Position numbers and translations under genes: made by a program. This document shows, in pieces, positions 1-61,953 of a stretch of 64,000 bases of DNA (positions within the stretch are counted from its first letter, which is position 1; each line of letters begins with the position of its first letter). This stretch comes from Somniosus microcephalus. Taxonomy: Eukaryota. The notes below the pieces were generated by a model that was not told the DNA's origin, did no database searches, and saw only the letters and a list, made by a program, of their open reading frames with translations. Location: positions 42,718,001 through 42,782,000 of the forward strand of contig CM126220.1 of assembly GCA_052327205.1 (NCBI GenBank), in the 5' to 3' direction.

Positions 1-112
1 AGCGCTCCACTTCCTTCCTGGAGAGCAAAACCAAATTTTTTTAAAGTTGAGAAACATAAGAATTTTCTCAACCTTTAGTGCCCCAAACGGGGCTATAATG
101 AATTTCTCCCCC
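1..112. mobile_element. Right end of a GC-rich PIF/Harbinger-type MITE (truncated by window edge)
   Basis: Ends in AATTTCTCCCCC, the same terminus as the MITE at 35328-36086; shares GCTCCACTTCCT and CCCCAAACGGGG with the right part of the MITE ending at 53959. Confidence 0.6.
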
Positions 113-580
113 TTGAACTTTATACCAATCACATTATTACACAATAAAGGTTATTTTAATCCTGAAATTTGAAACTCATCCCATTTCATTTCATCCAAAT
201 TCACACTGTTAGAAATGAGGGGCCTGCTTCCAATTGAGAGCAGTCAGATCATTTCATTCCCGGATCACACCGACATGGGAGAGTATTATGGTTGGATTTG
301 GATAAACCTTTCCAAATGTGAAACAATTGTGTGTTACTTGTAAGTATAAAATATATGAAGGAACTATTTAATACCATAACATGATCTGAAAGCAGAACTA
401 TTGTTCTAGGTTGTAATACAGATTATAGGATTCATGCAGATTGATGCAAGGTTCTCACATCTATGAATACAGTGTAGGTTTGAACTGTTTAAACCGAAAC
501 ATTATCAGGAAATAAAATATTAAATACATATGTCACTGGAGCTGATGATGGTCCTCTTCCCTTCCTATTTTAAGTGCATA

Positions 581-1047
581 GAAAGAAAGACTTGCATTTA
601 CATAGCGCCTTTCATGACTACTGGACGGCTCAAAGCGCTTTACAGCCAATGAAGTACTTTATGAAGTGTAGTCACTGTTGTAATGTGGGAAACACGGCAG
701 CCAATTTGCGCACAGCAAGGTCCCACAAACAGCAATGTGATAATGACCAGATAATCTGTTTTTGTTCTGTTGATTGAGGGATAAATATTGGCCAGGACAC
801 CGGGGATAACCCCCCTGCTCTTCTTCTAAATATTGACATTGAATCCTTCACGTCCACTTGAGAGAGCAGGCGGGGCCTGGGTTTAACATCTCATCCGAAA
901 GACGGCACCTCCGACAGTGCAGCACTCCCTCAGCATTGCACTGGAGTGTCAGCCTAGCTTTATGTGCTCAATTCCCTGGAGTGGGACTTGAACCCACAAC
1001 CTCCTGACTCAGAGGCGAGAGTGCTACCAACTGAGCCACAGCTGACA
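581..1047 (-). mobile_element. tRNA-derived Deu-domain SINE (SacSINE1/AmnSINE-like), near full length
   Basis: On the minus strand: tRNA-like head with GGTTCAAGTCC box B, central GGTGCCGTCTTTCGGATGAGA.GTTAAACC Deu-like core, L2-like tail ending in TCTTTCTTTC; four other similar copies in the window. Confidence 0.8.
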
Positions 1048-1051
1048 AATA

Positions 1052-1841
1052 GGGCTGGATTTTCTCAATGGAGAGGAGTTGGAGGCGGGACTGCTGCTTG
1101 TTTGGTCAATGTCCTGACTCCATCATCTTCTGGCCAACCAGCATGATTTTCCCCTGATTGACCCTGCGGACTCAGCAGGCCAATTAGGGAGAAAGTCACT
1201 GACAGAGCACGTCAATGTCTGACATGCTATCTGTCAAGACTCCTTGAAGGAAGAAATGTCAGCGTTTGACAGCTCTGTGAACTGTCAAACACTGACATTC
1301 TCTATAGTTTGATGAGTCCTTGTGTTCAGGACTCATCAAACCTTTCAACTTTGTAGATTTCAGATGGCTGTTGGGTCAGAGGATCCAACAGCCAGTCTGT
1401 GAAATCAACAAGGAAGATGTTGGGTCTCCCGATCCAAGGTGGATAAAGGCTGTAGGCTGAAAACAAGGTAAGTGAACATTTTTTAACACTCGCCTTCCAT
1501 ACTTACCACTCCACACTTGCACCCATCACTTCACCTCAACATCTTACTTTCAGCTGCCTCCGACCTCCGCAGACCTCCTTCACATCTCCTCCAATCCGGC
1601 GGGGTTCTCCGAGGTCGGGAAGCCTTCAGCTGAGAAGGTAAAATGGCACTAATCCCTTTTAGGATTTAATCCCTTTCCCGGCTCCAGGAGATGGGACCTG
1701 AAGCAGCACATCTTCCCGCCTCCTGGCAAAAGGGCACGGAGGTGGAATGGGGGTGGGATTGCCATCCGCCCCCACTTTCTGCTACTTTACCGGCAGTCCC
1801 GCCTCCATGCCCACCTCCTTGGGGCTGAGAAAATCCAGCCC
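1052..1841 (+). mobile_element. Non-autonomous PIF/Harbinger-type element (MITE A) with internal hairpin cassette
   Basis: Perfect 16-bp terminal inverted repeats (TIRs) GGGCTGGATTTTCTCA / TGAGAAAATCCAGCCC; flanks ATA / TTA (imperfect 3-bp TSD); homologous in opposite orientation to the MITE at 15765-21838. Confidence 0.85.
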
Positions 1842-2276
1842 TTAAGTACAACTGAGATGTGTGAGCACCCGAAAGCCTCAATGCTGGAGTGCTGGACTCT
1901 CAGCTGCGACTCATCGAGTTTGAATCCTAGTCTGGATGAACACACACATAAATCACACTAGGGCTTATTCGAGTGAAAGCCTCGCCAGTCTCAGACAGGT
2001 CATCTGGGAGACAGTGACCCCTTTATTTTGCTCTGCTCCAGGCAGATTGATCATGGGGCCACCACTGACAATGTCCATGGAGATGACTGTGAGCTAAACA
2101 GCACTGCCAAAGAAAAGAAAACTAGAAAGTATAAAAATAAGATTGAACAGCCCCAGCATATCCTCTCCTCGCTGACCCTCCTGCCACGACAAGATTAATA
2201 GGCCATTTTACAGAATCCAGTTAGTCGGCATACAAAACTTTTTTGTGCGCATTTGTAACAATCAGAGAAAAACACA

Positions 2277-2783
2277 GGGGTAGATTTTCAACTTACCGCC
2301 AGAGCATAAAACTGGCGACGCAGATGGTTTGTCCGATATAGAAAGCGCTCGATTTTCATTTACATTGCTAGCGATAGATAAAGAAAGACTTGCATTTATA
2401 TAGCGCCTTTCACAACCTCAGGATGTCCCAAAGCGCTTTACAACCAATGAAGTACTTTTGAAGTGTAGTCACTGTTGTAATGAAGGAAACGTGGCAGCCA
2501 ATTTGTGCACAGCAAGCTCCCACAAACAGCAATGTGAAAATGACCAGATAATCTGTTTTAGTGATGTTGCTCGAGAGAGAGAAATATTGACCAGGACAGC
2601 GGGGAGAATGCCCCTGCTCTTTTTCTAAATAGTGCCGCGGGATCTTTTACGTCCACCTGAGAGGGAAGACAGGGCCTCGGTTTAACGTCTCATCCGAAAG
2701 ATACGAAACTCAGGCGGTTTCTCAATGGGGGGCTAAACCACAGCGCGAGTTTTATGCCTGGGCAACAAGTTGAAAATCAACAC
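2277..2783. mobile_element. Fold-back MITE split at its centre by a SINE insertion
   Basis: GGGGTAGATTTTCAACTT..GCATAAAACT on the left pairs with AGTTTTATGC..AAGTTGAAAATCAACACC on the right; the Deu-SINE at 2378-2700 lies between the arms. Confidence 0.65.
2378..2700 (-). mobile_element. Deu-domain SINE, 5'-truncated
   Basis: Matches the 581-900 part of the first copy and lacks the tRNA head. Confidence 0.8.
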
Positions 2784-3081
2784 CACAAGCTCAGATTTCG
2801 TCTTGCCCATTGTAGATGTTTGAAGTCCAGGGAGATCCCCCCACCACCCCCCCCCCCCCCCGCACACACTGCAGATATCTAAACAAACTCGCTTTTTATA
2901 TTTTACTCATCAAGCTCTTTCTTTTGTGTTTTCCCATCTTCAGCTCACGATGATCTTGTTCTTCATACTTCAAACCATCTCCCCACAGCCAACAGTGATC
3001 TTTCTACCAAGAGCAAACACCTTCTTTTCCCTGGGATGCAGTTTCTCAAAAGCCAAGTCGTTCCAGGCTGCCAACCTATTA

Positions 3082-3414
3082 CAGGAAACTTTCGTTTAAC
3101 CGGAGGTTAAATGTCCGGAAAGCTCTATCCACCGGCAAAATTTAGGAGTCGGTTCAGATAAGTTTTTTTACTTCTCGTTGCTTTTTTCCCCCAGTCGTAG
3201 CTCTGCAAGGTCTAGCTGAAGCTGTTGCTTAGCTACAGAGACGCTTGCAAGCTACGCCGACTGTTTTGAAGCTGTTGCTAAGCAACAGGGTTTGTTGCTT
3301 CACACGGAGCTCAGAAGCTCCGTATGTTTTAACATTAGCGCTGGTTTCTCCGGCAGTTTTGATGGAACGGCAACAGCTCGGTCCAGTCAGTGCCGGATAC
3401 CAGAAAGTTTCCTG
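3082..3414. mobile_element. Tc1/mariner-type MITE
   Basis: TIRs CAGGAAACTTTC / GAAAGTTTCCTG flanked by TA on both sides (3080-3081 and 3415-3416). Confidence 0.75.
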
Positions 3415-5974
3415 TAGTTGGAATTTGAAGCTGCTGAGTTTTATCATATGAAACAAACTTTACTTTGGTAAATCCATGATAAATATCCAGATTTTAAAAC
3501 AATCCCGAACATCAGAGTTAACTCTTGCCATCATAGTAATGAAAATCTGATTCCCACAAAAGCATGATGACACAAATAAATCAGACAATATTTTAAGTAT
3601 AATGTACTGTTAAAGGGATTTTTTTTTAAGTGCTCGAAGGGAAAGAAAGCTTTAAAATAGTACTGTGACTAAGATGGGAATTCCAACTGTCTTTCAGTGT
3701 TAGATATTCCACAATGATACTGTTTCTGTCTTAACACTAAATGTGTGAATGAAAAATATATAATAATCACTATAACAAAACTGGTAGCGATCACAACTTT
3801 TTTTTTTAAAAAGAGTATACAGCACAGAAACAGGCCATTCAACCCAACTAGTCTGTGCTGGTGTTTAGACTCCACACGAGTCTCGTGAAACAGGTTTCAG
3901 TAAAGCAATATTGCGCAGCACTATCAACTCCAGGGATCTGCTAAACCCACTCGCTGCTCACGAGTTGTCCCTTACGGGGCGGAAGAAAACATAAGTATAG
4001 AAGCAGAGTGCGGCATCGCAGACCTCCAATGCAGGGCACCACTAGACGTGGGGTGAAGGTGCCATGTCCACTCCACTGAGTTCCTGATCTGAGCTGTGTC
4101 ACTCTGGGGAGACAATGGTGAAAAGTATGAGGGTGAAACATCACTTTTGGGCCTTCGTTGTCTCTTAGCAACGAGCTAGAGAACAATTTCGGTCGAAGGC
4201 AACTGGAGTCAGGAATTAAGTTGCCCTCATCACCACAGTAGATGGCAAAACCAAAAATGAGAATAGAAGCTAAAAACTTGCAGGGGAAAGACTATGGGTT
4301 AGATTTTTAATTTGCTGCCTAGGGGTAAAAGCTGATGTTGTGGATCGGCTGCCAGTTATAGAAACTGCCTGATTATTAATCCAAATCAAAGGAAATGAAA
4401 ATTGGGTGGTTTCTATAACAGCCAGTTGATCCGCAACACCAGGACAGCAAGTTGAAATTCTACCCCTATATTGAGATATACTTCTTTTCACTATGAAATG
4501 CTGCTCGTGCTGGTAACTGCAACCAGACCATTCAGTGCTTTGAAGGCTTGTAAAAAGCAGCAGGCACACGTTTGCTTTCTGAAACATGTCAGATTTTAGG
4601 CGGAACGCTGACCTCAGCTCTTTTACCCATACTGACTTCTTCAGATGGACTAATATTTAGACAGGAATTTCTAGTTCTGAGCACTTCCAAAGAGCAGGAG
4701 CTTCCTGTTGTCCACACCTTCTTCACTTCTGCCTGGCTATTTCTAGTACTAAGTGCTTTTGAGAGACTTTGTTCAACACAATATGTAAGTATTTTTTTAA
4801 ATTACCAAAAAAACATTTTTCCCAATTAATGGGCATTTTGTTCTCCAAGAAAACATGGTGCCAAGAGATAACATTGTGCGATACTATCATATGAACGTTT
4901 AATGCAGTTGTATAAATTTTTAATGGGTTACCTTCTCCACTAAAATAGCATCCACACAATAATATTGTTTAATGCAATTTTCAGGCTTGAATGCTTAATC
5001 TAATCTTCCAGTCTGTTGATATCATACTGAGCAACATAATGATTACGTTACCGCATAATGAACTTGGTACATGTGAGCTAATGCCTATCTTTTTTCAAAT
5101 ATGCAGTAGTGCACATCATTTGTGACAAACAGAAAAGCTATGAAATAAAATTTGACATAAAAACAAAAATGCCAGCAATGAGCACCAAATCAATCATTGT
5201 CTAAAGGTGATGGGTTAACGTTTGGGCCAGAGACTCTCCACCAGGGGTCAAGGAGACTGAGCCAATGCGCTGGAGAGAGGTTGACGGAATCTGTTTAACA
5301 ATGCAGAGCATACTGCAGGAAAGGCAGAGAGAGCCCTGGTGAGAGGAGCCCATCATTCTCCTTCAGATGCTGACTTGGTTACTGTGCAGTTCCAGCATCT
5401 TCTGTTTTAACTGGATTATTTTGGTATCATTTAACAGAGACTGCACCAGCATCAAAACTCATTTCACCTCTATTTATTTGTCCTCTCATCTCCTGCGCTT
5501 TCCAGTGAGCTGAGCTGAATTGTCACAAACAGTTCGTCAATCATCCTAATTGTTACAGTTGTATACATTACTGTTCTCTACGGCAGATGCTGTGCTTGTT
5601 CACTGCATTTAAAATCCATTACATATTTAATAAGCATTTATCAAGGCTGGCAGCCCACAGGTTCAGTTCCTAAACCTGGTTTCTTAAATCAAGTGAAGCT
5701 GAAGTATTAAATTCATTCATCAACAAATGGCATTGAATAAATCAACGCACTGTTGCCAACGACCATTTGTTCAACTCAAAAAGCTGCATTAAAATGGGAG
5801 AAAATTCTACTGGTCACTTTGGTATTCCTTGTTTGTTGTGGTGCTTCTCCCACAATCCTAAATCTTCAAAAGAAATATTGAAAAAACACAATAGAGTGGA
5901 TTCTAAATTTCAAGTACACTTCAAGTAGTGTTCGATCTAACAACATGACAGTATGATTTCTCAACAGCAGGGAG

Positions 5975-6770
5975 GAGGGCTGTGGAGGAGATCACTGGCC
6001 AGGGAGGACATGGGGGGAGGGGGTGGTGGGAGGGGGAGATCACAGGCTGGGGACATGGGGGGAGGGGGTGATCGCTGGCTGGGGACATGGGGGGAGGGGA
6101 TGGGGAGAGGAGGAGATCACAGGTCAGAGAGGACATGGGGGGAGGGGGTGGTGGGAGGGGGAGATCGCTGGCTGGGGACATGGGGGGAGGGGGTGGGGAG
6201 AGGAGGAGATCACAGGCCGGAGAGGACATGGGGGGAGGGGGTGGTGGGAGGGGGAGATCACAGGCTGGGGACATGGGGGGAGGGGGGTGGTGGGAGGGGG
6301 AGATCGCTGACCCGAGAGGACATGGGGGGAGGGGGAGATCGCTGGCTGGGGAGGACATGAGGGGAGGGGGTGGGGAGAGGAGGAGATCACAGGCTGGGGA
6401 GGACATGGGGGGAGGGGGTGGTGGGAGGGGGAGATCGCTGGCTGGGGAGAGATCGCTGGCCGGAGAGGACATGGGGGTAGATCGCTGGCCGGAGAGGACA
6501 TGGGGGGAGGGGGTGGTGGGAGGGGGAGATCACAAGCCGGAGAGGACATGGGGGGAGGGGGCAATTGCTTGCTGTGGACATGGGGGGAGGGGGAGATCGC
6601 TGGCCGGAGATGACATGGGGGGGAGGGGGAGATCACTGGCTGGGACATGGGGGGAGTGGGTGGTGGGAGGAGGAGATCGCAGGCCAGTGAGGGCATGGGG
6701 GGAGGGGGTGAGCACAGGCCGGGGAGGACATGGGATCACGGGTGGGGAGATGGGGGGGTCCGATCGCTGG
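5975..6770 (+). repeat. G-rich minisatellite built from GGAGATC(A/G)C..GG...AGGACATGGGGGGAGGGGGTGGTGGGAGG units
   Basis: Roughly 25-50-bp variant units visible directly; strong purine/G strand bias; all overlapping ORFs are low complexity. Confidence 0.9.
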
Positions 6771-7366: not shown

Positions 7367-7831
7367 TAAAGAAAGACTTGCATTTCTATAGCGCCTTTCA
7401 CAATCACCAGACGTCTCAAAGCGCTTTACAGCCAATGAAGTACTTTTGGAGGGTACTCACTGTTGTAATGTGGGAAACGCGGCAGCCAATTTGCGCACAG
7501 CAAGCTCCCACGAACAGCAATGTGATAATGGCCAGATGATCTGTTTTTATTCTGTTGATTGAGGGATAAATATTGGCCAGGACACTGGGGATAATTCCCC
7601 TACTCTGCTTCAAAACAGTACCATGGGATCTTTTACATCCACCTGAGAGAGCAGACGGGACCTCGGTTTAACGTCTCATCCAAAAGACGGCACCTCTGAC
7701 AGTGCAGCACTCCCTCAGCACTGCACTGAAGTATCATTCTAGCTTTATGTGCTCAAGTCCCTGGAGTGGGACCTGAACCCACAACTTTCTGACTCAGAGG
7801 CGAGAGTGCTACTCACTGAGCCACAGCTGAC
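7367..7831 (-). mobile_element. Deu-domain SINE, near full length
   Basis: Colinear with 581-1047. Confidence 0.8.
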
Positions 7832-11112: not shown

Positions 11113-11868
11113 GGCCCAGAAATTCGTGTCGGGGGCTTCCCACGGGTACAAGCCCCCGACCTACACTTACCTAGCGCGCTGGCAGTTGAAGCCTGGGCCT
11201 GCGTGGATTTCCTGTCTGTGGCCCGGTCCAGCTCCCGGCGCGCTGTGCTTGCGTGATCCAGCGGCGTACTTAGTGCGATGCATCGGCTGGGATCACGTGA
11301 GTACTGGGCAACCAATCGGAGGATGCAAAAGTTCATTCATGAGTTTGACAGTAAGAACTGTCAAACTCATGAAAACTCCGGGCGCCCAAAACAGTACTTA
11401 AACTCGAAATAAATTTTTTTTTAAATCACACTATTTAAATGAACTATTTAAATAACTATTTTAAACAACAATTTAAATTTTTGAAAAAAATAATTTTATA
11501 AAAAATCAGGGCTAAAAATACACTTACCTTACTGTAAAGTCTTTAAAAATAATAAACCTGTGGAAAAAAAATTCTAATTTTAATTAATAGACCACTTACC
11601 TTTTAAAATTAAGTCCTTACGTCTGCTTTTTAAAGTGTAAAAAGTGGAGGCCTTCACACACGGGCAAACCTGGAAAAAAAAAGGAAGTTCAACGCACACG
11701 CGCAGACTCCTGCACGCACGCGTTCGACCTCTGAACCCCTTGGTTCAGAGGATCGGAAATGCCGGTTTCCCGCGCATGCGCTGTGCATGCAGAAAACCAG
11801 CAATTCCATCGGTCCCACGCGTGAGTACACGGTGCTTACTCGCGCGTTGGGACACTAATTTCTGGGCC
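11113..11868. mobile_element. PIF/Harbinger-type MITE C
   Basis: 18-bp TIRs GGCCCAGAAATT(C/A)GTGTC with one mismatch; exact 3-bp TSD ATT (11110-11112, 11869-11871); CpG-rich arms, AT-rich centre, perfect 17-bp hairpin at 11336-11373. Confidence 0.85.
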
Positions 11869-13973: not shown

Positions 13974-15799
13974 ATAGAGTTTAAATAGGTTTCTAATTAT
14001 TTCTTCTTTTCTCTTGACCGCTCCTGAAGGTGCTGATTTATTCTGCAGCATGATTCCAAGGGCACGGACAGCCCCCTGCTCCTTCATAGGTGAGCCCAGA
14101 GTATTGGCCGGCTATGTGACCATGTGGGAGAGTTAACCATGCTCTCACCCACATACGCATTTTTCAGCAGAGGTCCCTGGACAGGGTCACTGGAGTGAGA
14201 GGCTTTAGCTGGTTTCTTAACCCTCTCAGTGTGCAGACATGGAGGTCAATTGTATTTCCCTACCGAAACCCCCTGACTGAGATCAGTTACCTCAACACAG
14301 ACCTGTAGAATTACTGTAGAACCATGGCTTTTAAAGGGCATTACAAATTGGTGGACCAGTCTGGTGAGCTAGTTAGTAAACCGAGACCATTTTACCGTGT
14401 CAATGTTCACACAAAGCAGTGATCCACTGGGCCACCAAGGCAGCCCTGTGATTATTTAACGACTCACTGCATAATCTCCAGACCATTTTCAATTAACAGG
14501 CTAACCAATCACATTATACAACCAGGCAGCCTTCTGCTCCCACTTATCCATCCCTCTGAGGAGTGAAACCTCATGAAACACTCGCACTGCCTGAAGCATT
14601 AAAATGTCATACTTCCCCAAACTGCCCTTTCGCTTCTGTCTTGAAAAATCCTCTTAACAGAGACGGACAACATGAGTGGATCTCAGGCGAAACCAAAACA
14701 TAGTGCAGCACTGACTCCCAAAGCCAAGATTTCCTATTTAGCTCTGTGACCCAATACAGGAGAATAAATTGTTACGTAGATTTGACATTGTAATTCAGCT
14801 CCTGTTCAAAGCTGAAGTGTCAAACCACATATCTGATTTCTAAACAGCAGGGAAGCTCCAGTTTAAATCATTTTTGGCAGGGCATTTTCTTGTTAGACCA
14901 CATTACCGAACAGCCCCATCAGTCACTGCCCCAAGACGTTGATGGTGAATTTCACCTTGGTGGTCACACACAATGGCCGGCAGTGAATCGGCAGCCCGTT
15001 TTACACTCCATCAACAAATGCATTAACTGATCAATCTCCTTCTTTCTATGGGGATTTTCCAGTAACCAGCACTCCGACAGAATGGTGACAGTTAACATTA
15101 ACTACTGCAAAGCATTAAAATATTCCTGTACATTACGGTTCTCATTAAAAGTAAACAAAAGTCAGTGGTACAAGCAGAACATAGAAAAAAGAAATGTGGA
15201 CTGCAGATTCTGTTCCACTCCTGAATGGGACCTTAATCATGAGGCAAAAAAGCTCGTCCATTCGTGGAATAAATCCTCCACTCAACATTTCCCCAATGAA
15301 CATCCTGTGAGGGGGTTTCTCCGATACTGGTCCCCCGTTACACACAGTTCTTGACGTCAGGATTTATAACAACAAAATACACACGGCACAGGATTTTGGC
15401 TCAACCTTTGATTCGTTCGTTTATTGAACACACACACACACAATTACTTCCCTAGTATAAATCCCTACGATTTATATCAGGCTAACAACCCCAAAATACA
15501 TAAGGGTCATTTGCATCGACACAATATGCCACAGTTAAACCCGTCCGCGATTTGACTGCTACATATAAAGTTACCCAGGCTCAATCACAAAACCCTTATT
15601 GTGATCTGACTGAAACTCTCAAACTTACTCAGACTCGATCATAAAAGCCCCCTCTATGATTTGGCTGAAACATACAATCACCACTCCCGATCGGCTGTCT
15701 CTTGGAGTTGATTGTAGGCCCGAATCTTTCTGTTCGCTGTTCTGCCGTCGGCTTCCCACACACTGGGCTTGATTTTCCAAGCCCCGAGGAGGCGGGTTT

Positions 15800-16034
15800 T
15801 GTGGTGTATGTAACCTGTACCACCTTAAGAGACTACCTTAAGAGATGGACTACTTTCTCATGGCTACTGTATATTGTAGTACCGGTGGTGACCACACCGG
15901 TCTATAAACTCTGTGTAGTAATTTGCTAAGCAGTTCAGCCCTGACCTTCGATTAGCAAAGACCTGTTTAAGTTATTCTTGTTGTCTGTGTCCAGTGATTT
16001 AGAATAAGCATATCTGGGACACTCAGACTCAACA
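15800..16034 (+). repeat. 5' LTR of Mag-like Gypsy
   Basis: TGTGGTG...TCAACA; TATAAA at 15903-15908; five substitutions versus the 3' LTR by manual comparison. Confidence 0.95.
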
Positions 16035-16035
16035 G

Positions 16036-16045
16036 TGGCGACGAG
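16036..16045 (+). promoter_or_regulatory. Primer-binding site, probably tRNA-Ser(GCU)
   Basis: TGGCGACGAG one base after the LTR, complementary to the ...CTCGTCGCCA 3' end of vertebrate tRNA-Ser(GCU). Confidence 0.8.
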
Positions 16046-16765
16046 TCCGATCTTACCCTGCGGCAGTTTTGCATCCAAGGCAGCTTCGTCCTCAGAACGG
16101 GCGTCGAGAAGAGGCATCCGCCATCATCATCCTGCTGAGCACCGCATCGCACGGGAGGCATCGAGAACCCGGGTTGAAATTACTGACCACGAAGTCCTCC
16201 ATCAGCGACAGGCAGTGATCATCCTTCTACCACGGTGGTGGGTAAGCCGATCTAGCGACACGGGCAGAAAGTCGGCCGCGTTGTCAGTGGAGAAGGGGAG
16301 GGAAACCGGAGGAAAAAGGGCTGAGAACTCGACCGCAGCCGGTGAAAAGGGCCGGGCTGCAATCGGGGCCGAGAGGCGCAGCGACAAGGGCAGCGTTAAT
16401 GCCACGAGAACCGCGGAGAACTCGACCGTAGCCGGTGTAAAGGGCCGGGCTGCAATCGGGGCTGAGAGGCGCAGCAACGAGGGAAGCGTTAATGCCCACG
16501 AGAACCGCGGGGGAGCAAAAGCAGCGTCGGGGAAATTAAGAACCGCTGGGAGGCGAGAACGGCAACAGCGCGGTCATCGCCATTGTAGCCAGCGGGGGAA
16601 GAAGACAAGCGCGGGAAGCTGCCATTGTAGTCAGCGGGGGGAAGAAGACAAGCGCGGGAAAAGCCGCCAAGCGCGGGAAGCCGCCATTTTAGTAGGCGGG
16701 GGAAGAAGACAAGCGCGGGAAGCCGCCATTTTGGAAAAATAAAATATTTAAAGAAACTCTCAAGG

Positions 16766-19700
16766 ATGCCTAAACACGGTAACATCACTGCTTTTGATAG
16801 CGATGTTGAAGATTGGGCCACGTATGTAGAACGCATTGAAGTTTATTGTACAGCAAATGAGGTACCAGATGATAAGAAAGCACTAACCTTATTAAACTCA
16901 ATGGGTGCGAAGACGTACGGGTTATTGAGGCACCTTGTAACACCAGATAAACCGGCGGATCAGACTTTCGCGAATATTGTTACTATCCTGCAAGAACATT
17001 TAAACCCCACGCCGCTGCTGATAGCGGAACGATTTAAATTTTACAGAAGAACGCAGCTGAAAGAGGAAAGCAACGCTGAATTCTTAATTGAACTGCGCAA
17101 GCTATCAAAGTACTGTCAGTTTGGTACAGGACTAGCAGATGCTCTGAGAGATAAATTCGTGTGTGGATTATTAAAAGAAGGAACACAAAAGCGACTGCTA
17201 GAGGAAAAGGACCTTACGCTTGATAAAGCTGTCACCATTGCAGCATCGCACGAGGCCGCAGCAAGAGGCACCGCGGAAATGCAGCTAAGGTCATCGGAAC
17301 TCAGCACCAATCAAATGGCATTGGGTGCAGTAAAGTGTTATCATTGCAGAAGGACAACGCATGATCAGAACCAGTGCTGGTTCAAAAATCAGGAATGCAG
17401 AAAATGTGGCAAGCTCGGTCACATAGCTAAAGTATGCCGGTCAGGAAAGAAGACCAGCAACAAAAAGTCACCGCAGGAAAAGTGCAAAAAGGTACACAAG
17501 GTGACAGAACAGTTCGGATGAACAGAAGACGGATTCAGACTCCAGCAGTAAGGAACTGGGTTGTCTAAGAATACATAATGTGGGTAACACAGCAGACCAC
17601 CAAACTATCTGGGTCACACTTCAGATAGCAGGAGTCCAAGTGAAGATGGAATTGGACACTGGATCGGCATTGACGGTCATGAATAAGCAAGATTACAAAA
17701 GGTTATTTCCACACATTCCCCTAAGGGATACGGAGATTGTATTGAAAACATACACGGGGCAAAGAGTATGCCCCATTGGAAAGATAAAGGTAAAGGTGGT
17801 CCACAAGGGTAAAGAAAGCCGAGGAATGGACTTATATGTGTTACCTGAGGGAGGTCCACCACTACTGGGACGGGAATGGATCAGGAGAATAAACATGGAC
17901 TGGCATTCCTTAAAAGCACTAACTGTAGATTCCGGTAAAAAGGACGATGTCAAACCTAAACGACTGTCCAGAATATTGGACGATGCTAAAGAGGTGTTCC
18001 AGCAGGGACTGGGAACACTGAAAGGAATTACGGCAAACATCAAGGTTGAAGAACATGCAAACCCGAAATTTTTCAAAGCTAGGCCGGTACCTTATACGAT
18101 ACGACCTGCTGTGGAAGCTGAGCTGGAAGGACTAGAACGTTCCGGAGTACTGTCAAAGGTGGACTGGAGTGAATGGGCCACGCCCATTGTTCCCGTCATG
18201 AAGCGTTCATCGAGTAACAAGCCGGGGGAACCGGGGAAGGTTCGCATCTGTGGCGGTTTCAAGATCACTGTTAATCCGGTGCTTCACACGGTGCAATATC
18301 CGCTTCCACGGATTGAGGATATCTTCGCTTCGTTGTCTGGCGGGAAACACTTCACCAAGATAGACCTGGCGCAGGCGTACGTACAGATGGAAGTTGATGA
18401 AGTGTCACGCCAGTATCTCACGATCAACACGCATAAGGGCTTATATCGGTATAATAGACTGGTTTTTGGAGTGGCATCGGCTCCAGCGATTTGGCAAAGG
18501 GCCATGGAGCAGGTATTACAGGGAATTCCAGGCACACAATGCTACCTGGACGACATTCTGATTACAGGAGATGATGATGAGGAACACCTTGCAAATTTGG
18601 AACAGGTGCTCACCAGATTGAAAGAATATGGACTTCGAGTTAATCGCCAGAAATGTGAGTTCTTTCAGAAGCAAATCTCGTAATGTGGTCACGTCATTGA
18701 CCAGGAGGGGCTTCACAAGTCACCTGACAAGATCGAAGCTGTTGTGAAGGCTCCCGCTCCGGAAAATGTATCCCAGTTGAGGTCGTTCCTAGGGTTGATT
18801 AACTATTACCATAATTTTCTGCCAAATTTATCCACGGTGCTACACCCGCTGAACGCTCTTTTGCAGAAGGGAGTGCCATGGAAGTGGAGCGAGGACTGTA
18901 AGTGGGCCTTTCACAAAAGCAAGGCATTGATCACCTCTAAGGAAGTGTTGGCTCACTTTAACCCAACGCTGCCTATTCGTTTAGCTTGTGATGCTTCTCC
19001 ATATGGTATTGGGGCAGTGCTCTCACATAAGTTGCCAAATGGCTTGGAAAGACCAGTCGCATTCGCATCCAGATCATTGACCTCCGCTGAGCGCAACTAT
19101 GCTCAGATAGATAGGGAGGCTCTCAGCCTTGTGTGGGGAGTAAAAAAATTTAATCATTACCTGCAAGGGCAAAAGTTTACGCTGCTGACCGACCACCAGC
19201 CGTTGGTTTCCATTTTTAACCCTAAGAAGGGTGTTTCGGTGATGACAGCGCAGAGGCTCTAGAGATGGTCCCTTTTCCTAGGGGCACATCAATATCAGAT
19301 CGAATTCAAAGGTACAAAGCAACATGGTAATGCTGATGGGCTGTCGCGCCTGCCACTACCTACAGCGGAAGAGGCACCGACAGTTGACCCTGTTGTGTTA
19401 TTTCACTCGACCATCATCGAATGTTTACCAGTCACCAATGCAAGTATTGAGAGAGAAACCAGGAATGACCCGACACTGTCTCGGGTCTACGAATTGACAG
19501 TGAAGGGATGGCCAGCTCATGGTGAACCACTGTTACCGGCATTCTCAGCCAGACGAGAACAGCTGTCCGTCTGTCAAGGAACATTGATGTATGGAACAAG
19601 GGTGATTATTCCTCCTAAATTAAGGGAGAGAGTTCTAAAGGAATTGCATGAAGGTCATCTGGGGGGAGTCAAGATGAAAAGCCTTGCTAGGGCTTATGTG

Positions 19701-20717
19701 TGGTGGCCAGGTATCGACCAACAAATAGAGGATCTGACTAAAAGCTGCTCAGGGTGCCAAAAAGTCCAAAATGCACCTCCAATTGCACCGCTGCATCCAT
19801 GGGAATGGCCGTCAACCCCATGGCAACGTGTACATATTGACTTCGCAGGTCCATTCATGGACTCCATGTTTTTAATTGCGATAGACGCACATTCTAAATG
19901 GCCAGAAGTGATTAAGATGGTGACCACTACCTCGGAAAAGACGATCGCAGTTCTAAGAACGATATTCGCAAGAAATGGATTGCCAGAACAAATATGTTCA
20001 GACAACGGACCGCAGTTCGTGTCAGAAGAATTCCAGAAATTCATGAAGAAGAATGGGGTGAAACATTATACCTCTGCCCTATATCATCCGGCTACAAATG
20101 GGTTGGCCGAGAGATTTGTACAAACGTTCAAAAAGGCGATAAAGGCCATGAGCGAAGACCAGATTCCACTACAACACAAGGTGGACAATTTCCTAATGGC
20201 ATATCGAAACGCCACTCATGCAGTGACAAATCAAAGCCCTGCCATGATGTTCTATAACAGGAGGTTGCGGTCCAGGTTGGACTTGTTAAAATCAAATGTG
20301 CGGAGGGAAGTCGAAAACAAACAGTTCCAGCATATAAATAACAAGACCACTCGGAGTTTCGAAATAGGACAACCAGTGTTAGCCCGGGACTATAAGAATG
20401 AGAAATGGCAATCTGGAACAATTCGTGCCAGACAAGGACCCCTGATGTACACGGTAGATATTGGTGAAAACGTAATACGACGTCATGCTGACCAACTTGT
20501 AGAATCGAGAACAAGGGTCGAACCCATGACTACGACAGAGACACCAGTGGAAGAAGTTAGTGAACCTGAAGCATCTACCTCAGACGCCAATGTATCTGAT
20601 GATGTCCAATCCATAAGAGATCAACTAGATGAGTCACCCCAGCAACGAGAATCAGAGACCCCTGAAAGGCGTTATCCAACTCGGATCAGGAGGCCTCCTC
20701 AGAGACTGAATCTTTGA
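16766..20717 (+). pseudogene. Gypsy gag-pol polyprotein, disrupted
   Basis: Gag with two Zn knuckles (CYHC..H....C, CRKCGKLGHIAKVC), protease LDTGSA, RT YLDD, RNase H CDASPYG, integrase HHCC and HIDFAG/SDNG/LAER. Frame change near 17510-17521; in-frame stops TAA 18681-18683 and TAG 19260-19262; RICGDFK motif reads RICGGFK. Confidence 0.95.
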
Positions 20718-20800
20718 ACAGTTTTGCATGAAGTTGTATATATGTTATCCATGTTATGTTTAAATTGGGATGTACACTGTTAAGCTAAAAAGGGAGGAAT

Positions 20801-21035
20801 TGTGGTGTATGTAACCTGTACCACCTTAAGAGACTACCTTAAGAGATGGACTACTTTCTCTTGGCTACTGTATATTGTAGTACTGGTGGTGACCACACCA
20901 GTATATAAACTCTGTGTAGTAATTTGCTAAGCAGTTCAGCCCTGACCTTCGATTAGTAAAGACCTGTTTAAGTTATTCTTGTTGTCTGTGTCCAGTGATT
21001 TAGAATAAGCATATCTGGGACACTCAGACTCAACA
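20801..21035 (+). repeat. 3' LTR of Mag-like Gypsy
   Basis: Direct repeat of 15800-16034, preceded by the polypurine tract. Confidence 0.95.
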
Positions 21036-22924
21036 GGTTTGGAGGCAGGAGTGGTGGGAAAATTGCAGAATCGGGGGGCAGGAACCCATCCCGCCTCCGT
21101 GCCAATGTCCCAGGAGGCGGGTACCCGACCTGTGCTGGGAGCCGCCTCCCCAAGGTGGGAAGAGGATTAGTGCCAATTAACAGCCTATTAACAGGTAGTT
21201 AACAGGCAGTTTTTTGCCTAATCCCTATTTTTAGCCCTGAAGTGTGGGCTGTCGGACGGCTCCGAACCACGCCAAGTTAGCGAGGTGGACCGTTGGTCTG
21301 CAGGGGTTGGAGGGGTCGAGATGTCTGGTGTGCAGGTGAGTGATGGGTGCATGTGTGGCGAGGTAAGTGTGTGAGGTAAGTGTAAAGTGTTTTAATAAGT
21401 TTTACTTACCTTTACTTTCTCCTGCAGGCTTCCTTCCTTCAGTTCTCGGGAGTCCCTCAGTTCACCGGCACAGAAAGCAGAATGGCCGCTGAACTGTCAA
21501 AAGCTGCAGCCTCTGCTTTCTGGTCTGGAGAGCTCTCTAACTGAGTCTGAGTAGAAGGACTCAAGTTAGAAGACAGATTGTCAGTGTTTGACAGCCTCAC
21601 AGAGCTGTCAAACGCTGATTTTTCATCTGTCAAAAGCTCGTGACAGATGAAATGTCAATCGCTGACGTCACCAGTAACCAGGTGTCCCTTAATTGGCCAG
21701 CTGAGCCCACTGGGCGGGCTTAACAGGGTCAATCAAGGGAAAATAGCGTGGGTTGGCCACAAGTCGATGGAGGCGGGACTACAACCCAAAAAGTGGGAGT
21801 CCCGCCTCCAAAAGCTCCCCATTGACAAAATCCAGCCCACTGTCTTCGAAGTGATCTTACTTTAAACCAAAACCAACTTTCAGTATTTCCTGGCCCCCTC
21901 TGAGCATGTGAGGCCATGTCAAAATGTGTGAATTGTTCCTGGTATTGTCCATTGATTTGAGATATCTTTTTGACAATGCAACCCTCCCAAAGTGACTGCA
22001 TATGCTAGGTTGTTGGTTTCTGTTAGCATTCGTATTCAAAAGGTTCGAGGCCCGGCCCATTGTCTAGGCCTGCACTGAAACTGGTTATTCGGGGGCCATG
22101 GTCTAAGGTGGACAATGTAACCCCTTAAGGTACATGAATATACAAATGTCCTTGTATCTTCCCTAGACAGAAAACCTTCGTATGGCAATTCGGCAGCAAT
22201 GTCTGAATTAACCCTTTATTGCCCAGCTCTTTTTGCGGGCTGTGCCCTTCTGGGTTTTAATATTTCATAGTCCAATATTTTTACCGTTGGGGGGAGGAAT
22301 TTATCCTACAATCCTCTACCTACATGTCAAGCTTCTGCTACTTCTGTGCAATTGACTTGTTCAGCATTTGTGAGCTGAACACGTACCTCGATGCAGGGTG
22401 CAGCAAATTGTAGTGAAGTGGATAGTGTGACTTTCTATGGCAGTTGAATTCTGAATTGAAACTACTGTTTGATAAGATGGCAACTAATTCTGCACACAGA
22501 CTAATCCATGGAACTGATCTGGCTCTTTATACTAATTAGCAACGAGCTGAAGGATTATAGCATGTTTATTTGATTCAGTGATCTCAAAAGGCATTCCTCT
22601 ACCAGTCTGCAAGAACCAGGAAATGACAGCATGACATTTTGAAATCCAGACACTGCGACCTCCATCTGTAAATCCATCACTTCACTGAGCTTTGCACTGC
22701 AGCAAGACAGCCAAGAGTCAGGTAGTAGAATCACCGTATTAAATAACCAGTTGGAACCATGTCTTTTAAAGGTTGTTAATAGACTGGCTGTATTTTAGTG
22801 ACTTTTAGTGAGTTGGAAGAGATAATGTTCCCAGCAATTTTATGTGCACCACTGGAGAAGGACACGTTTTGATTTCATATGTCCTTGAATTGGATGTTTT
22901 TTTAAACAATAAATAACAGGAAAT

Positions 22925-42671: not shown

Positions 42672-42980
42672 TGTGGCGTTGCCACATTGGGGAAACACTG
42701 TGTGTATGTAGATAAACCTGTATAATCCCCTTTTAACTGCTGTATTCCCCTCCCCCCGCAAGACAGTTGCAAGCTGAAAGGAATAAGGCACGTTCAGACT
42801 TGCCTGCTGCTGTTAGAAGGAAAACCAATCAGGTTCCAGCAGGTGACCAATCCGTGAGTCATCACAGGTTCGCGGGCTTCACGAATTCAGTACTGTATTG
42901 TGAGAGTTGGAGTAAAGACCTATTTCTTGTAGCTCGCTGTGTTGCCCATTTCTTTACGCGGGAGACCGTAGTCCCCCACA
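42672..42980 (+). repeat. 5' LTR of CsRn1-like element
   Basis: TGTGG...CCACA; two substitutions versus the 3' LTR by manual comparison. Confidence 0.95.
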
Positions 42981-42981
42981 T

Positions 42982-42993
42982 TGGTGACCCCGA
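42982..42993 (+). promoter_or_regulatory. Primer-binding site for tRNA-Trp
   Basis: TGGTGACCCCGA, complementary to the ...TCGGGGTCACCA 3' end of tRNA-Trp(CCA). Confidence 0.85.
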
Positions 42994-43050
42994 ATGTCGG
43001 CGGCCGAAGCCCCCGACTCACGCAGCCCTACAGAGACCAGCAATGACCCG

Positions 43051-46000
43051 ATGGCAACCAGCAGCAGCCTGATGTTGGCCGGCGCCGCGTCCTTGAAGCT
43101 CCCCACTTTCTGGGAACACCAAGCACCAGCTTGGTTCGCGCACTCGGAGGCCCAATTCACCCTTCGCAGGGTTCAAGACGATGAAGAAAGGTACCTCCAC
43201 GTAGTCTCAGCACTAGCAAGCTCTACCGCCGCCGAAGTTCTCGACCTGCTGGGGAACCCACCACAGACCGGCAAGTACTCAACCATTAAGGGCCGCTTGC
43301 TGCAGGCTTACGGCCTGTCCAAGGAGGCTTCTCTCACTACCAGGCCTCGGCGATTCTACCCCGACCCAGTTGATGAGCCGGATGCTTGCGCTCCTGGGCT
43401 CTGAACCGCAGTGCTTTTTGTTTCGGGCCCTTTTCCTCAGCCTGCTTCCTCAGCAGGTACAGACTGCCCTCGCGGGGTCCCCGATCACGGACTGCATACA
43501 ACTGGCAGCCGCCGCGGACAAAGTTTTCGCCGTCGCCCAACTCGGCTGTGCAGCCGCGAGGCTCCCCGACACCACCGCGGGTGCGCCGCCACGCCAGGCC
43601 GCAGAACTATGCTACTACCACGCGCGTTTCGGCCACAAGGCCCAACGCTGCAGAGCACCCTGCTCTTTTGATCAAACCAAGATGGCCGCCCAGCCCAACG
43701 CACCAGCCCCGCGCCGCCGCCTAGGCCCGCTTGACCGCACCCCCGCCGCCACGATGGCCATCGGCACCGCAGGTAAACTGCTGTACATAACCGACTCTCT
43801 TTCAGGGCGCAGATTCCTTTGCGACACCGGAGCCCAATGCAGCATAATTCCTGCCTCCCAGCTCGACATCCAGGCAGGCAGCAGCGGCCCACCCCTCGTG
43901 GCGGCAAATGGCACAGCCATCCCTACTTTCGGAAAGCGACGGGCCGAGGTTTGTTTCAACGGCCAGCGATTTACGTGGGATTTCGTGACGGCCTCAGTGG
44001 CACATCCTTTGCTGGGCGCCGATTTTCTTTGCGCCCACGGACTCCTGGTCGACGTCCGCGACAGGCGCCTGATCGATGCAGCAACTTTCGCTTCACTGGC
44101 CTGCCAGCAGAGCAACAGCCCAGCCCTCGTTGGGTCCTGCTCCGCCCCGGCGCATGACGACTACGCCCGCCTACTCGCAGATTTCCCGAGGCTCACACAA
44201 CCGACCTTCTCAGCCGCGGCAGCCAAGCATGGGGTCGAGCACCACATTGCCACTACGGGACCACCAGTGTTCGCTCGAGCCAGACGCCTGGACCCAGCCA
44301 AGATGGCGGTGGCCAAGGAAGAATTCGCCACGATGGAAAAACTGGGCATCATCCGCCGCTCGAACAGCCCTTGGTCGTCCCCCCTCCATATTGTGCCCAA
44401 GCTGGGCAGTGGCTGGCGCCCCTGCGGCGACTACAGACGGCTCAACGACGCCACCACGCCCGATAGATACCCTATTCCGCACATCCAAGACTTCTCGGCA
44501 CACCTAGCAGGAAAGTCCGTCTTTTCCAAGGTCGACCTGATTCGCGGCTACCATCAGGTCCCCGTCCACCACGCAGACGTCCAGAAGACGGCGGTCATCA
44601 CCCCCTTCGGACTGTTCGAGTTCCTGCGCATGCCCTTCGGGCTTAAGAACGCCGCACAGGCCTTCCAACGGCTCATGGACTCCGTCCTACGGGACCTGAG
44701 CTTCCTGTTCGTCTATCTGGACGATATCCTCGTGGCCAGTACCAGCAAGGCCAAACACATCGCGCATTTGCGCTCCCTTTTCCAGCGCCTCAGCCAACAC
44801 GGGCTAATCGTCAACCCGGCCAAATGCCAGTTCGGAGCAGCCCAAATTGACTTTCTCGGCCACAGAATCTCGCCAAGGGGAGCCATTCCCCTACCTTCCA
44901 AGGTGCAGGCGGTGGCGGACTTTCCCCAGCCCACCTCGGTTAAGGCGCTGCAGGAATTTTTGGGGATGGTCAATTTCTATCATCGGTTCGTGCCCAAGGC
45001 CGCCGCACTCATACGCCCCCTCTACGAAGCCACCAGGGGCAAAACCGGCAAAGAGCAACGCACCTGGTCCAGCGAGATGGCGACAGCCTTCCACCAGACC
45101 AAAAGCGCCTTGGCCAATGCCACACTACTGGCCCACCCCATCCCGGGCGCCAAGACCGCCCTCACCACGGACGCCTCGGATTACGCCGTCGGTGCCGTCC
45201 AACAACAGTGGGTCGAAGGCGCGTGGCAGCCACTGGCATTTTTCAGCCGACAGCTGCGCAAGAACGAGCAGGCTTACAGCACGTTCGACAGAGAGCTCCT
45301 GGCCCTGTTCCTGGCAATCCAGCACTTCCCTTTCCTTCTGGAAGGCCGGCCGTTCACCGCATTCGTGGACCACAAGCCGCTCACTTTCGCCATGGCCAAA
45401 GTAACCGAACCCTGGTCCGCGCGCCAACAGCGTCAACTCAACTTCATCTCGGAGTTCACCACGGACATCCGCCACGTCGCCGGCAAGGATAATTTGGTGG
45501 CCGACTGCCTCTCAAGACCCTCGCTCCACGCAGTGCACCTGGGCGTCGACTACGCCAGCATGGCGAGAGACCAGGCTGCCGACGCGGAGATCCAGGCCCT
45601 CAGGACGTCAACTACCAGTCTCACCCTGGCCGACATCCACTTCCACGCAGCCGGCACAACCCTCCTGTGCGCCGTCTCAGTCCCCTCGCCTAGGCCGGTC
45701 GTTCCATCCGCCTGGCGCAAGCGAGTTTTCGACATTATCCACGGCCTCTCACATCCAGGGATGTGTGCGTCTCAGAAACTTATGTCCGCCAAGTTCGTCT
45801 GGCCTGGACTCCACAAGGATGTGAGAGACTGGACCAACACATGCGTGCCGTGTCAGCGCGCTAAGGTCCAGCAGGCGCCATTGGAGTGTTTCTCGGTGCC
45901 CGAGAGGCGTTTCGACCACGTCCACGTCGCTCTGGTAGGCCCCTTGCCGCCGTTGCACGGTTTTACACACCTGCTCATGATCGTCGACCGCACCACCAGA

Positions 46001-47021
46001 TGGCCCGAGGTGGTTCCCCTCGCCTCCACCACCACGACCGACGTCGCGCGAGCATTCGTCTCAACATGGGTGGCCCGGTTCGGCGTGCTAACCGACATAT
46101 CCTCGGACAGAGGCCCCCAGTTCACCTCCCACTTGTGGAATGCCAACATCGCCGGCCTCGGCACCAAGTTGCACAGGACAACAGCCTACCACCCGCAGGC
46201 CAACGGGCTCTGCGAGCGCTTTCATCGTTCTTTGAAAGCCTCTCTCCGCGCCAGCCTGGTCGACACCAGCTGGATCGACAAACTACCCTGGGTTCTCCTG
46301 GGATTGCGTACCGTGCCCAAAGAGGACCTCCGCGCCTCTGCGGCTGAGATGGTCTACGGCCAACCGCTCAGAGTACCAGGCGACTTCCTCCCCGACAACG
46401 GAGCCATGGTCGGCCGCCAGACAGCTTTCCCTGCACCAGGACGCGGCCCAGCAATTCTGTCCAGTGCCCACTTCGCAACACGGCCCGCAGCCGTCCTACG
46501 TGCCTCGAGACTTACGACATGCGGAGTTCGTCTTCATGCGCCGGGACGCGCACAGAGGCCCGCTGCAGGCACCATACACCGGCCCCTTCCCAGTATTGGA
46601 GACGGGGGACAAAGCTTTTCTTATCGATGTCGGCGGGAAGCTGGACCTTATTTCAGTAGACCGCCTCAAACCGGCGCACCTGGACCTTAGCTTCCCGTTT
46701 CAGCCGGCTCTTCCCCCATGGCGGGGCAGACCTCCCGCGTTGGCGGCGGCCCCACAAGAGGCCCAAGACACGCCAGAACCTTACTTTCCGGCCGCCGCCC
46801 CACCTTCGCCGGCAGCCCGTCCAGCCAGCCCACCGGCAGACCAGCCGCCAGACCAGCCGACGAACCAACCGGCCGACCTCCCAGACAGCCCTCCTCACAC
46901 GCCAGATGGCTACTACAGCCGCTTGGTCAAACCTCCGCAGAGACTGACTTTTACAGTTAACGAGGATTCTGGGGGGGCATATGTGGCGTTGCCACATTGG
47001 GGAAACACTGTGTGTATGTAG
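43051..47021 (+). pseudogene. CsRn1-like gag-pol polyprotein with two frameshifts
   Basis: LKLPTFW...AWF..EAQF Gag start, protease CDTGA, RT RPCGDYR/YLDD, RNase H TDASD, integrase H..SH...CVPC, SDRG, CER, and a GPF/Y module (PYTGPF). Frameshifts near 43325 and 46396; first integrase catalytic Asp reads Ala (HVHVALVGP). Confidence 0.93.
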
Positions 47022-47290
47022 ATAAACCTGTATAATCCCCTTTTAACTGCTGTATTCCCCTGCCCCCGCAAGACAGTTGCAAGCTGAGAGGAATAAGGCA
47101 CGTTCAGACTTGCCTGCTGCTGTTAGAAGGAAAACCAATCAGGTTCCAGCAGGTGACCAATCCGTGAGTCATCACAGGTTCGCGGGCTTCACGAATTCAG
47201 TACTGTATTGTGAGAGTTGGAGTAAAGACCTATTTCTTGTAGCTCGCTGTGTTGCCCATTTCTTTACGCGGGAGACCGTAGTCCCCCACA
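46982..47290 (+). repeat. 3' LTR of CsRn1-like element
   Basis: Direct repeat of 42672-42980. Confidence 0.95.
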
Positions 47291-52772: not shown

Positions 52773-52990
52773 AAGAAGAACAACTTGCATTTATATAGCG
52801 CCTTTCACACCCTCAGGACATCCCTTGGCACTTTACAGCCAATGAAGTACTTTTGAAGTGTAGTCATTGTTGTAATGTAGGAAACACGGCAGCCATTTTG
52901 CGCACAGCAAGCTCCCACAAACAGCAGTGTGATAATGACCAGATAATCTGTTTTAGTGATGTTGGTTGAGGGATAAATATTGGCCCGGAC
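52773..52990 (-). mobile_element. Deu-domain SINE 3' fragment
   Basis: Matches 581-800. Confidence 0.8.
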
Positions 52991-53215
52991 ATATTAGGCT
53001 GTTTGCTGTCCAAAGTTTTATCAAGGAGTTTACAAATGCTTTAGTCAGTAGGGCCAATGACCTCATCACTTTTGCCACTGGCCAACAGCAGCAACATGAG
53101 CGAGCAACATAATTCTATAGATCTGATGGCGTTCTCATAGTCCAGGGGGTCATTAACTGTACCTATGTTGCTATGCAGGCCATGGTGCTGAACCCTATAT
53201 AAACAAAGGGATTTT

Positions 53216-58572: not shown

Positions 58573-58758
58573 GGCCTAGAAATTTGTCTCGGGCTGTGAC
58601 ACAAAGCGGGCAGTATCGGATCAGCCGCCCGTTATACGCAGCGTGTGATATTCAGTTCCACTGAACGCAATAGAACTGACTATCAGGCACTGCGTATAAC
58701 GCGCGGCCAATCCGATACTGCCCGCTTTGTGCCACCGCCCGAGACAAATTTCTAGCCT
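58573..58758. mobile_element. Fold-back (palindromic) MITE
   Basis: CTAGAAATTTGTCTCGGGC..CACAAAGCGGGCAGTATCGGAT..CGTTATACGCAG pairs with CTGCGTATAACG..ATCCGATACTGCCCGCTTTGTG..GCCCGAGACAAATTTCTAG. Confidence 0.85.
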
Positions 58759-61531: not shown

Positions 61532-61953
61532 TGAAAGAGAGACTTAGATTTATGTAGCATTTTTCACAACCTTGGGACATAAAAAAGCGCTTTACAACTA
61601 ATTAAATACTTTAAAAGTGTAGTCACTGTCATAACTGCGGCAGTCAATTTGCGCACAGCAAGGTCCCATGAACAGCAATGTAATAATGACCAGACAATCT
61701 GTTTTAATATGATAAATATTGGCCAGGACACCGGGGAGAACTGCCCTACTCGTCTTCAAAATAGTGCCATAGGATCTTTTACATCCACCCAAGAGGGCAG
61801 ACCTTGGTTTAACGTCTCATCCGAAAGGCGGCACCTCTGAAAGTGCAGCCCTCCCTCAATACAGCACTGGAGTGACAGCTGAGTCTCTGGAGTGGGACTA
61901 TGAACTCACAACCTTCTGACTCAGAGGCGAGAGTGCTACCCACTGAGCTGTGG
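61532..61953 (-). mobile_element. Deu-domain SINE with small internal deletions
   Basis: Colinear with 581-1047. Confidence 0.8.

Follow-up and report, generated by a model that had tools for sequence, protein, structure and literature searches.

The hairpin cassette of MITE A, a transposon copy in the 64,000-nucleotide stretch of Somniosus microcephalus DNA analysed here (the window), is probably a DNA-level, regulatory-like palindrome cassette in a MITE of known kind, and not the spliced, structured non-coding RNA proposed by a first-pass annotation. On balance, its hairpins are best seen as strand-symmetric DNA inverted repeats inside a high-copy, non-autonomous Harbinger transposon. The explanation that we favour is that H1 and H2 likely form a TALE-type promoter/enhancer module under selection, and that H3 and H4 drift and are likely re-perfected by template switching.

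MITE A is a non-coding PIF/Harbinger MITE copy that occupies positions 1052-1841 and belongs to subfamily cluster 7 of a family of about 840 bp (median 833 bp among copies with both ends), relative to which two pieces are missing, one of 14 nt near 1163 and one, at 1660/1661, of about 35 nt from the right-arm palindrome (Table 1). Two exact patterns with no motif in common matched 13,866 and 16,407 places in the 6.45-Gb genome, and controls 0; both counts are lower bounds, and the family thus comprises at least 16,407 copies. An exact 3-bp target duplication flanks 24 of the 47 copies with both ends, as compared to a mean of 2.8 and a maximum of 8 under shuffled pairing, and none of these 47 has a 4- or 5-bp duplication. 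The duplicated triplets are AT-rich and go beyond TWA (ATA 4, TTA 4, TAT 4 and TAA 1 of 24). No reading frame across the cassette is kept open over 14 subfamily majority sequences, and, as similarity to transposases was also lacking, we rejected the cassette as a coding remnant. On the marks tested (TIRs, short length, absence of coding sequence, high copy number, 3-bp TSD and a two-gene partner) the family is a Tourist-like PIF/Harbinger MITE. The first-pass annotation had correctly called the element a Harbinger-type MITE, and had rightly seen no ORF in it. It had also placed a GC box and a CCAAT motif correctly, but the former is a subterminal repeat, GGAGGCGGGAC, with three reversed copies in the right arm (at 1715, 1798 and 1810); being common to both ends, it was rejected as a promoter GC box only and is likely the binding site of the Myb protein of the partner described below. 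Our literature search found no description of this family, which may be catalogued in Dfam or Repbase.

Table 1 Coordinates of the features of MITE A, its target site and the second family copy, in window positions.
Feature	Position	Strand	Remarks
Left target-site copy	1049-1051		ATA
Left TIR	1052-1067	+	16 nt
Subterminal repeat GGAGGCGGGAC	1081-1091	+	"GC box" of the first-pass annotation
TGATTGAC motif and CCAAT box	1155-1186	+	CCAAT within 1178-1186
H1	1200-1236		TGACAG/CTGTCA pair
H2	1255-1299		18 bp, one C·A mismatch; inverted TTTGACAG pair
H3	1307-1341		Perfect 14 bp; palindrome
H4	1351-1411		Long imperfect palindrome
5' splice-site consensus AAG/GTAAGT	1465-1473	+	GTAAGT 1468-1473
G/GTRAG motifs	1490-1536	-	Two to three in the family; in MITE A only 1501-1507 intact
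Acceptor CTTACTTTCAG of the first-pass annotation	1543-1553	+	Subfamilies 6-8
Second C-rich YAG	1565-1572	+	Kept in 99/131 copies examined
Right TIR	1826-1841	-	16 nt
Right target-site copy	1842-1844		TTA, one mismatch
Second family copy	21036-21838	-	Subfamily 1, 62% identical to MITE A; right TIR missing

The second family copy in the window folds over its cassette with a z of -6.04, and its H3/H4 letters differ from those of MITE A. An LTR-retrotransposon-like insertion at 15790-21036, in which gag/pol-like frames are broken and 246-nt direct repeats with 96% identity stand 5,001 nt apart, adjoins this copy where the right TIR is missing. Elsewhere in the genome, family copies often adjoin or sit inside each other or other Harbinger elements (L032 at C2:25259305-25260941, L116/L117, L017 and L005). 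MITE A itself starts 6 nt past the end of the first of five copies of a dispersed repeat (584-1045, 2380-2701, 7368-7821, 52775-52991 and 61534-61948), which we take to be SINE-like. Further Harbinger-type elements lie at 2277-2784, with 41-nt imperfect inverted ends, and at 4296-4466, a 171-bp element with TIRs and a 3-bp duplication whose palindrome gives sub-threshold miRNA matches in Rfam. The window also contains an inverted repeat at 58576-58755 (88-nt arms, 88% complementary, 4-nt loop) and, at 42672-47281, a young retroelement-like insertion in which direct repeats of at least 300 nt (99% identity, 4,310 nt apart) surround a 1,157-codon open frame (43217-46687).

An autonomous 4.24-kb element has the same TIR as the MITE and carries a DDE_Tnp_4 gene and a Myb_DNA-bind_5 gene, which face each other. 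The left ~110-150 nt of the MITE (the CCAAT and TGACGTCA region) align at 58-64% to the Myb-gene end of this element and the last ~170 nt at 62-74% to its transposase end; only these outer 110-200 nt align, the interior matching neither end. The transposase and Myb protein of this clade would be the ones that mobilise the MITE in trans. A direct parent carrying the hairpin cassette was not found. Two pattern searches combining MITE and Myb motifs returned 4 and 7 matches, all rejected as MITE copies beside or inside other elements; the best 30 of 150 scored Pfam transposase loci were rejected as members of another Harbinger clade without similarity to the MITE; and L092 and L091, which depart from the family sequence after the donor, were rejected as junctions with other repeats. 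As TTTGACAG and CTGTCAAA are also found in 0/6 autonomous copies, an origin of the interior from the leader of a parent can be argued by analogy only. In another Harbinger clade, both autonomous ends read from sequence as TIR, hairpins, non-coding exon, GTAAGT and AT-rich intron. The MITE of this clade in the window (11113-11868; TIR GGCCCAGAAATT), which represents a second MITE lineage, matches the transposase leader of the autonomous members (L255/L256/L064) over its last 252 nt, donor included, at 76-77%. By analogy with such elements, the facing donors of the MITE A family may be what is left of non-coding first exons in a two-gene parent of convergent layout, and may have been retained as U1 sites. 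The genome abounds in Harbinger transposase (96,622 first-look candidates), and many of the 150 scored candidates have open frames of 385-398 codons; the superfamily is reported absent from the elephant shark in the cited passage of PMC9179366.

To compare subfamilies, 224 profile matches in sampled loci were reduced to 176 unique full cores and grouped into 14 clusters, which are 52-93% identical. Constraint on the master lineage was expressed as parsimony changes per column across 12 full-length subfamily sequences, the overall average being 1.0. Values far below this average were obtained for the subterminal repeat (0.09), CCAAT (0), the H1b arms (0.2-0.3), the H2 arms (0.11-0.38, with 2 changes in the 3' arm versus 17.6 expected) and the right-arm palindrome (0.03), those for CCAAT, TTTGACAG and the donor being inflated by collection with patterns that contain these motifs, an effect which the use of two patterns without a common motif limits and does not remove. 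The H3/H4 arms changed at 1.1-1.4 per column, and the spacer before the donor at 1.9.

Both H1 and H2 are built from TGACAG sites, of which each subfamily has four to six; this hexamer is described as the Prep/Meis HEXA site in the cited part of PMC6023610. The inverted pair TTTGACAG-N4-12-CTGTCAAA occurs at 38,800 places in the genome versus 33 for a control. Half of the sampled inverted-pair loci (6/12) belong to the second MITE lineage with its other TIR; there the pair follows CCAAT at a distance of 31-32 nt and survives even where the outer stem is broken. In the copy of this lineage at 11113-11868, a 16-bp palindrome encloses the same TTTGACAG pair, again behind CCAAT, and GTAAGT occurs three times on the minus strand. 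TALE (Prep/Meis, Pbx) and NF-Y elements of zebrafish embryos, as presented in the cited parts of PMC6023610 and bioRxiv 10.64898/2026.02.16.706105, likewise bring TGACAG sites, the TGATTGAC motif and CCAAT close together, but the decamer of the MITE agrees in 8/10 letters and lies 29 nt from CCAAT instead of 10-12, and the MITE sites are putative. For these reasons of fit and distance, a DECA-CCAAT composite element (TGATTGACAG 10-12 nt from CCAAT) was rejected. The paired TGACAG sites of H1 and H2 behind CCAAT are likely a host TALE-type promoter/enhancer module, which TALE and NF-Y proteins would bind and which would be kept by selection on master elements. An older family cluster (L235:505-778 (-), L131 and L273) has a TATA-like CTTAAAG in the H1b loop that was lost in younger subfamilies, and is without the plus-strand donor.

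The first-pass annotation had drawn a short intron between AAG/GTAAGT and an acceptor ending at 1553, an 86-nt span, and both motifs are present there. The donor is intact in 146/176 copies and changed once versus 8.8 changes expected (0.11 per column); the oldest cluster, of 2 copies, lacks it. The acceptor is found in 47/49 copies of subfamilies 6-8 versus 3/127 elsewhere and, with 14 changes versus 10.8 expected (1.27 per column), evolves at the background rate. RNA reads were taken from two raw RNA-seq runs of one study, X15 and X16, which were chosen by species label, of which 24 and 31 in 100 were used, and which may come from a close relative (the best DNA run shares 0.61 of words). Joints were listed where at least three reads supported them in these two samples. 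On this basis, the 1,678 and 4,699 reads on the window copy (6,377 in all) did not yield the 1467-1554 joint that the annotation had offered as a check. On a subfamily-11 copy, the 4,916 and 17,041 reads (21,957 in all) yielded six joints, all of them non-GT..AG, and no splicing into the second YAG (1572) was seen. Reads instead run through the donor, over which depth peaks on the subfamily-11 copy. With an acceptor confined almost to one clade, changing at the background rate, and no joint in the reads of the two runs, the proposed intron is not supported. Low-rate splicing from the donor into scattered host exons may occur, the loose-end reads having been examined in their largest groups.

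Copies of the family are transcribed and their RNA is strand-structured, although the reads are not specific to the MITE A locus, only 30 and 28 of the 1,678 and 4,699 being at least 99% alike to the window copy. In X16, the first-mate minus/plus depth ratio on the subfamily-11 copy is 0.26-0.35 at the left end and 1.05 at H2, rises to 13-17 from H4 over the donor to the minus-strand motifs, falls to 0.55-0.68 just past the second YAG and is 3.7-4.6 at the right end. X15 goes in the same direction except at the right end, and more weakly, and reads on the window copy have the same strand pattern as those on the subfamily-11 copy. Given the usual first-mate-antisense chemistry, this pattern suggests that transcription diverges from two places, around H2 and at the right-arm palindrome, in directions that the opposite chemistry would invert; host read-through with orientation-dependent processing may also produce it. 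Of the reading in the first-pass annotation, transcription of the family with a strand pattern and constraint on the donor are supported, and the splicing is not, the intron joint being absent from the reads of the two runs.

The donor could also be read as part of a single selected unit of promoter, hairpins and donor, in which unspliced, U1-bound RNA from master elements maintains the MITE in an open state or protects it against silencing and thereby allows more mobilisation. We consider this unlikely, although several observations speak for it: the donor matches the subterminal repeats in conservation and occurs in duplicate in subfamilies 3-5, the minus-strand motifs, which on the plus strand also read as branch-point-like CTYAC, vary only within GTRAG, and the strong strand bias of the reads covers H3, H4 and the donor and ends near the second CAG. 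The donor motif, however, could itself be a DNA site. It is moreover absent from the oldest cluster, 12/14 other Harbinger-type elements have no GGTRAGT, the hairpins pair without strand preference, and the reads on the subfamily-11 copy revealed no distinct start or end site.

All four consecutive hairpins read by the first-pass annotation are real: 1190-1420 folds into four stems at -108.3 kcal/mol (z -9.95), and 0/200 shuffles were as stable. In 13/14 subfamily majority sequences the cassette folds with a z of -6.0 to -14.3, as compared to -2.3 to +1.0 for a downstream control, the oldest cluster (2 copies) giving -1.7. Pairing therefore outlasts sequence across diverged subfamilies, as the annotation had expected. 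The way in which it does so differs between stems. The CTGTCA of H1 pairs upstream in the clade of MITE A and downstream, as H1b, in most other subfamilies. The sequence of H3 changes as fast as the background, its arms pairing again in shifted registers, whilst that of H4 changes at or above the background rate, with pairing kept per subfamily. Copies L091 and L161 combine the H3 5' arm of subfamilies 1-5 (TTCTAA) with the 3' arm of subfamilies 6-14 (C(A/C)AA); compared with them, H3 differs in the 5' arm in subfamily 14 and in the 3' arm in subfamilies 1-5, and each is paired in its own register. Relative to L091/L161, each H3 clade is thus changed chiefly in one arm, over several neighbouring letters, which pair with the opposite arm. 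Template-switch mutation makes multi-base changes of one arm that restore pairing in a single step, according to the cited part of PMC8794818, and H3 resembles this; the hairpins treated there are RNA genes under RNA selection, whereas the stems described here are without an RNA-strand signature. From this comparison of living subfamilies, H3 and H4 would likely have drifted and then been re-perfected through template switches that copied one arm onto its partner.

Decay in individual copies was somewhat slower in stems than around them. Private non-CpG changes, counted in the 11 clusters with five or more copies, amounted to 325/23,112 for stems, as compared to 201/12,046 for loops (p 0.058) and 464/25,373 for the downstream sequence (p 0.0002), those in stems giving 88 G·T versus 78 A·C. 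In three subfamilies represented by 83 copies that had been collected purely by similarity, the corresponding figures were 133/11,736 for stems versus 295/20,591 for non-stem sequence (p 0.026 when pooled and 0.12-0.14 within base classes). Double changes in copies, of which 24 gave Watson-Crick pairs versus about 10 expected, were set aside as mostly shared sub-lineage changes or CpG pairs. Overall, the rate of decay of stems in copies is about four fifths that of the background and shows no strand bias; copying repair, sequence context or weak selection could each account for the gap, as could selection for RNA or DNA structure acting in a subset of copies.

This near-background, symmetrical decay, together with the background rate of letter change in H3/H4, fits a reading of the interior as a neutral relic, in which palindromes persist by template-switch repair and hitch-hiking and selection acts on the ends only. 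Hairpins are also common in other Harbinger elements of the sampled DNA, 12/14 of which have at least three stems of at least 9 bp. We nevertheless hold this reading to be improbable, as the non-palindromic CCAAT, donor and CACCCATCACTCACCT are far more conserved than their neighbours, and the same TTTGACAG pair behind CCAAT recurs in the second lineage.

Of the marks of a conserved structured RNA, single-register covariation, a strand signature and an Rfam match at gathering score were all looked for and not found. The minus strand gives the more stable fold in 9/14 subfamilies, and internal stem mismatches in the majority sequences comprise 9 G·T, 8 A·C and 18 others; neither an excess of G·U over A·C nor one consistently more stable strand is thus seen in the 14 subfamilies. 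RNAalifold on 14 real copies gave a covariation term of -0.35, with double changes that keep pairing in one register at 4/33 pairs, and did not recover H3 in one register. This scarcity of column-wise covariation, which runs counter to the annotation's expectation for aligned copies, arises because the register in which H3 and outer H4 pair varies between clades. An Rfam scan of window positions 1-6000 returned nothing at gathering score and, over 1200-1553, no match at E up to 1; four other family copies gave 6 matches, all below gathering score. Nor is either arm of a pre-miRNA-like stem conserved as a mature strand, H3/H4 arms changing at 1.1-1.4 versus the average of 1.0 per column.

The view of the first-pass annotation, a spliced Pol II transcript with conserved structure that would serve as small-RNA precursor cluster, structured leader or RNA cofactor, is therefore very improbable. 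In its favour, 13/14 subfamilies fold strongly despite changing letters, the donor is conserved, family RNA is present and strand-biased, and the inner stem of H4 leans towards G·T (several G·T, few A·C), an observation made after the fact that runs against a purely DNA reading. The conserved RNA structure that it assumes is nevertheless not supported, given the lack of strand preference and G·U excess and the covariation result, and neither is its splicing, given an acceptor all but confined to one clade and reads without a 1467-1554 or any GT..AG joint; the H3/H4 arms are also less conserved than expected of mature small RNAs, and no Rfam family matches at gathering score. Least probable of all is selection of the palindromes as extrudable DNA structure (cruciforms or single-strand hairpins) that aids end pairing or excision, which strand symmetry, pairing kept with changing letters and the abundance of hairpins in related elements would fit, but against which stand the second lineage, which keeps the TTTGACAG core and not stem length, the swapping of partners by H1 between subfamilies, and the fact that cut-and-paste transposition is not known to need extruded DNA structure.

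The reading of H1/H2 as a selected module and of H3/H4 as drifting, repaired palindromes can be set beside known elements. Tourist-like PIF/Harbinger MITEs such as mPing and zebrafish Harbinger3N_DR are, in the cited part of PMC2836001, similarly short and non-coding, with TIRs and a 3-bp TSD, and have ends in common with a two-gene element encoding a DDE transposase and a Myb-like protein. As far as that part goes, the present family differs in an AT-rich target that is not strictly TWA, in that no direct parent was found for its interior, and in the presence of TGACAG palindromes and, on both strands, of splice-donor motifs. A further vertebrate Harbinger MITE, Harbinger-N12A_XT of Xenopus tropicalis, contains palindromic repeats and transcription-factor sites in its interior (such sites being putative in our family), and some of its copies lie in putative enhancers, to follow the cited passages of PMC12676858; it measures 342 bp as opposed to about 840 bp here, and was compared by description and not by sequence. 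The first-pass annotation had assumed that MITE mobility is independent of internal sequence, a premise contradicted for the Harbinger MITE mPing, whose internal regions can tune mobility according to the cited part of PMC9921582.

More tentatively, and with considerable doubt, we suggest that shark-type Harbinger MITE lineages may have come under selection for an internal module absent from their autonomous partners. Behind CCAAT, inverted TGACAG pairs would drive divergent transcription; together with 5' splice sites facing each transcript, they would make the element accessible or protect it against silencing, in the germline or in the early embryo, thus raising mobility.

The family serves as a cautionary case, in that hairpins can persist across subfamilies that are up to 39% different, or 48% in the case of the oldest cluster, without being RNA structure, and it offers a natural series for measuring template-switch repair of palindromes. 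The leads to follow are the internal TGACAG/CCAAT/donor module and the strand-structured RNA. If this module raises mobility or acts as a promoter or enhancer, it bears on why MITEs outrun their parents in vertebrates. The family would then supply TALE-responsive regulatory sites in large numbers to a lineage that has been little studied, and, if the internal-module reading is true, tens of thousands of portable TALE/NF-Y modules would have been spread through this genome.
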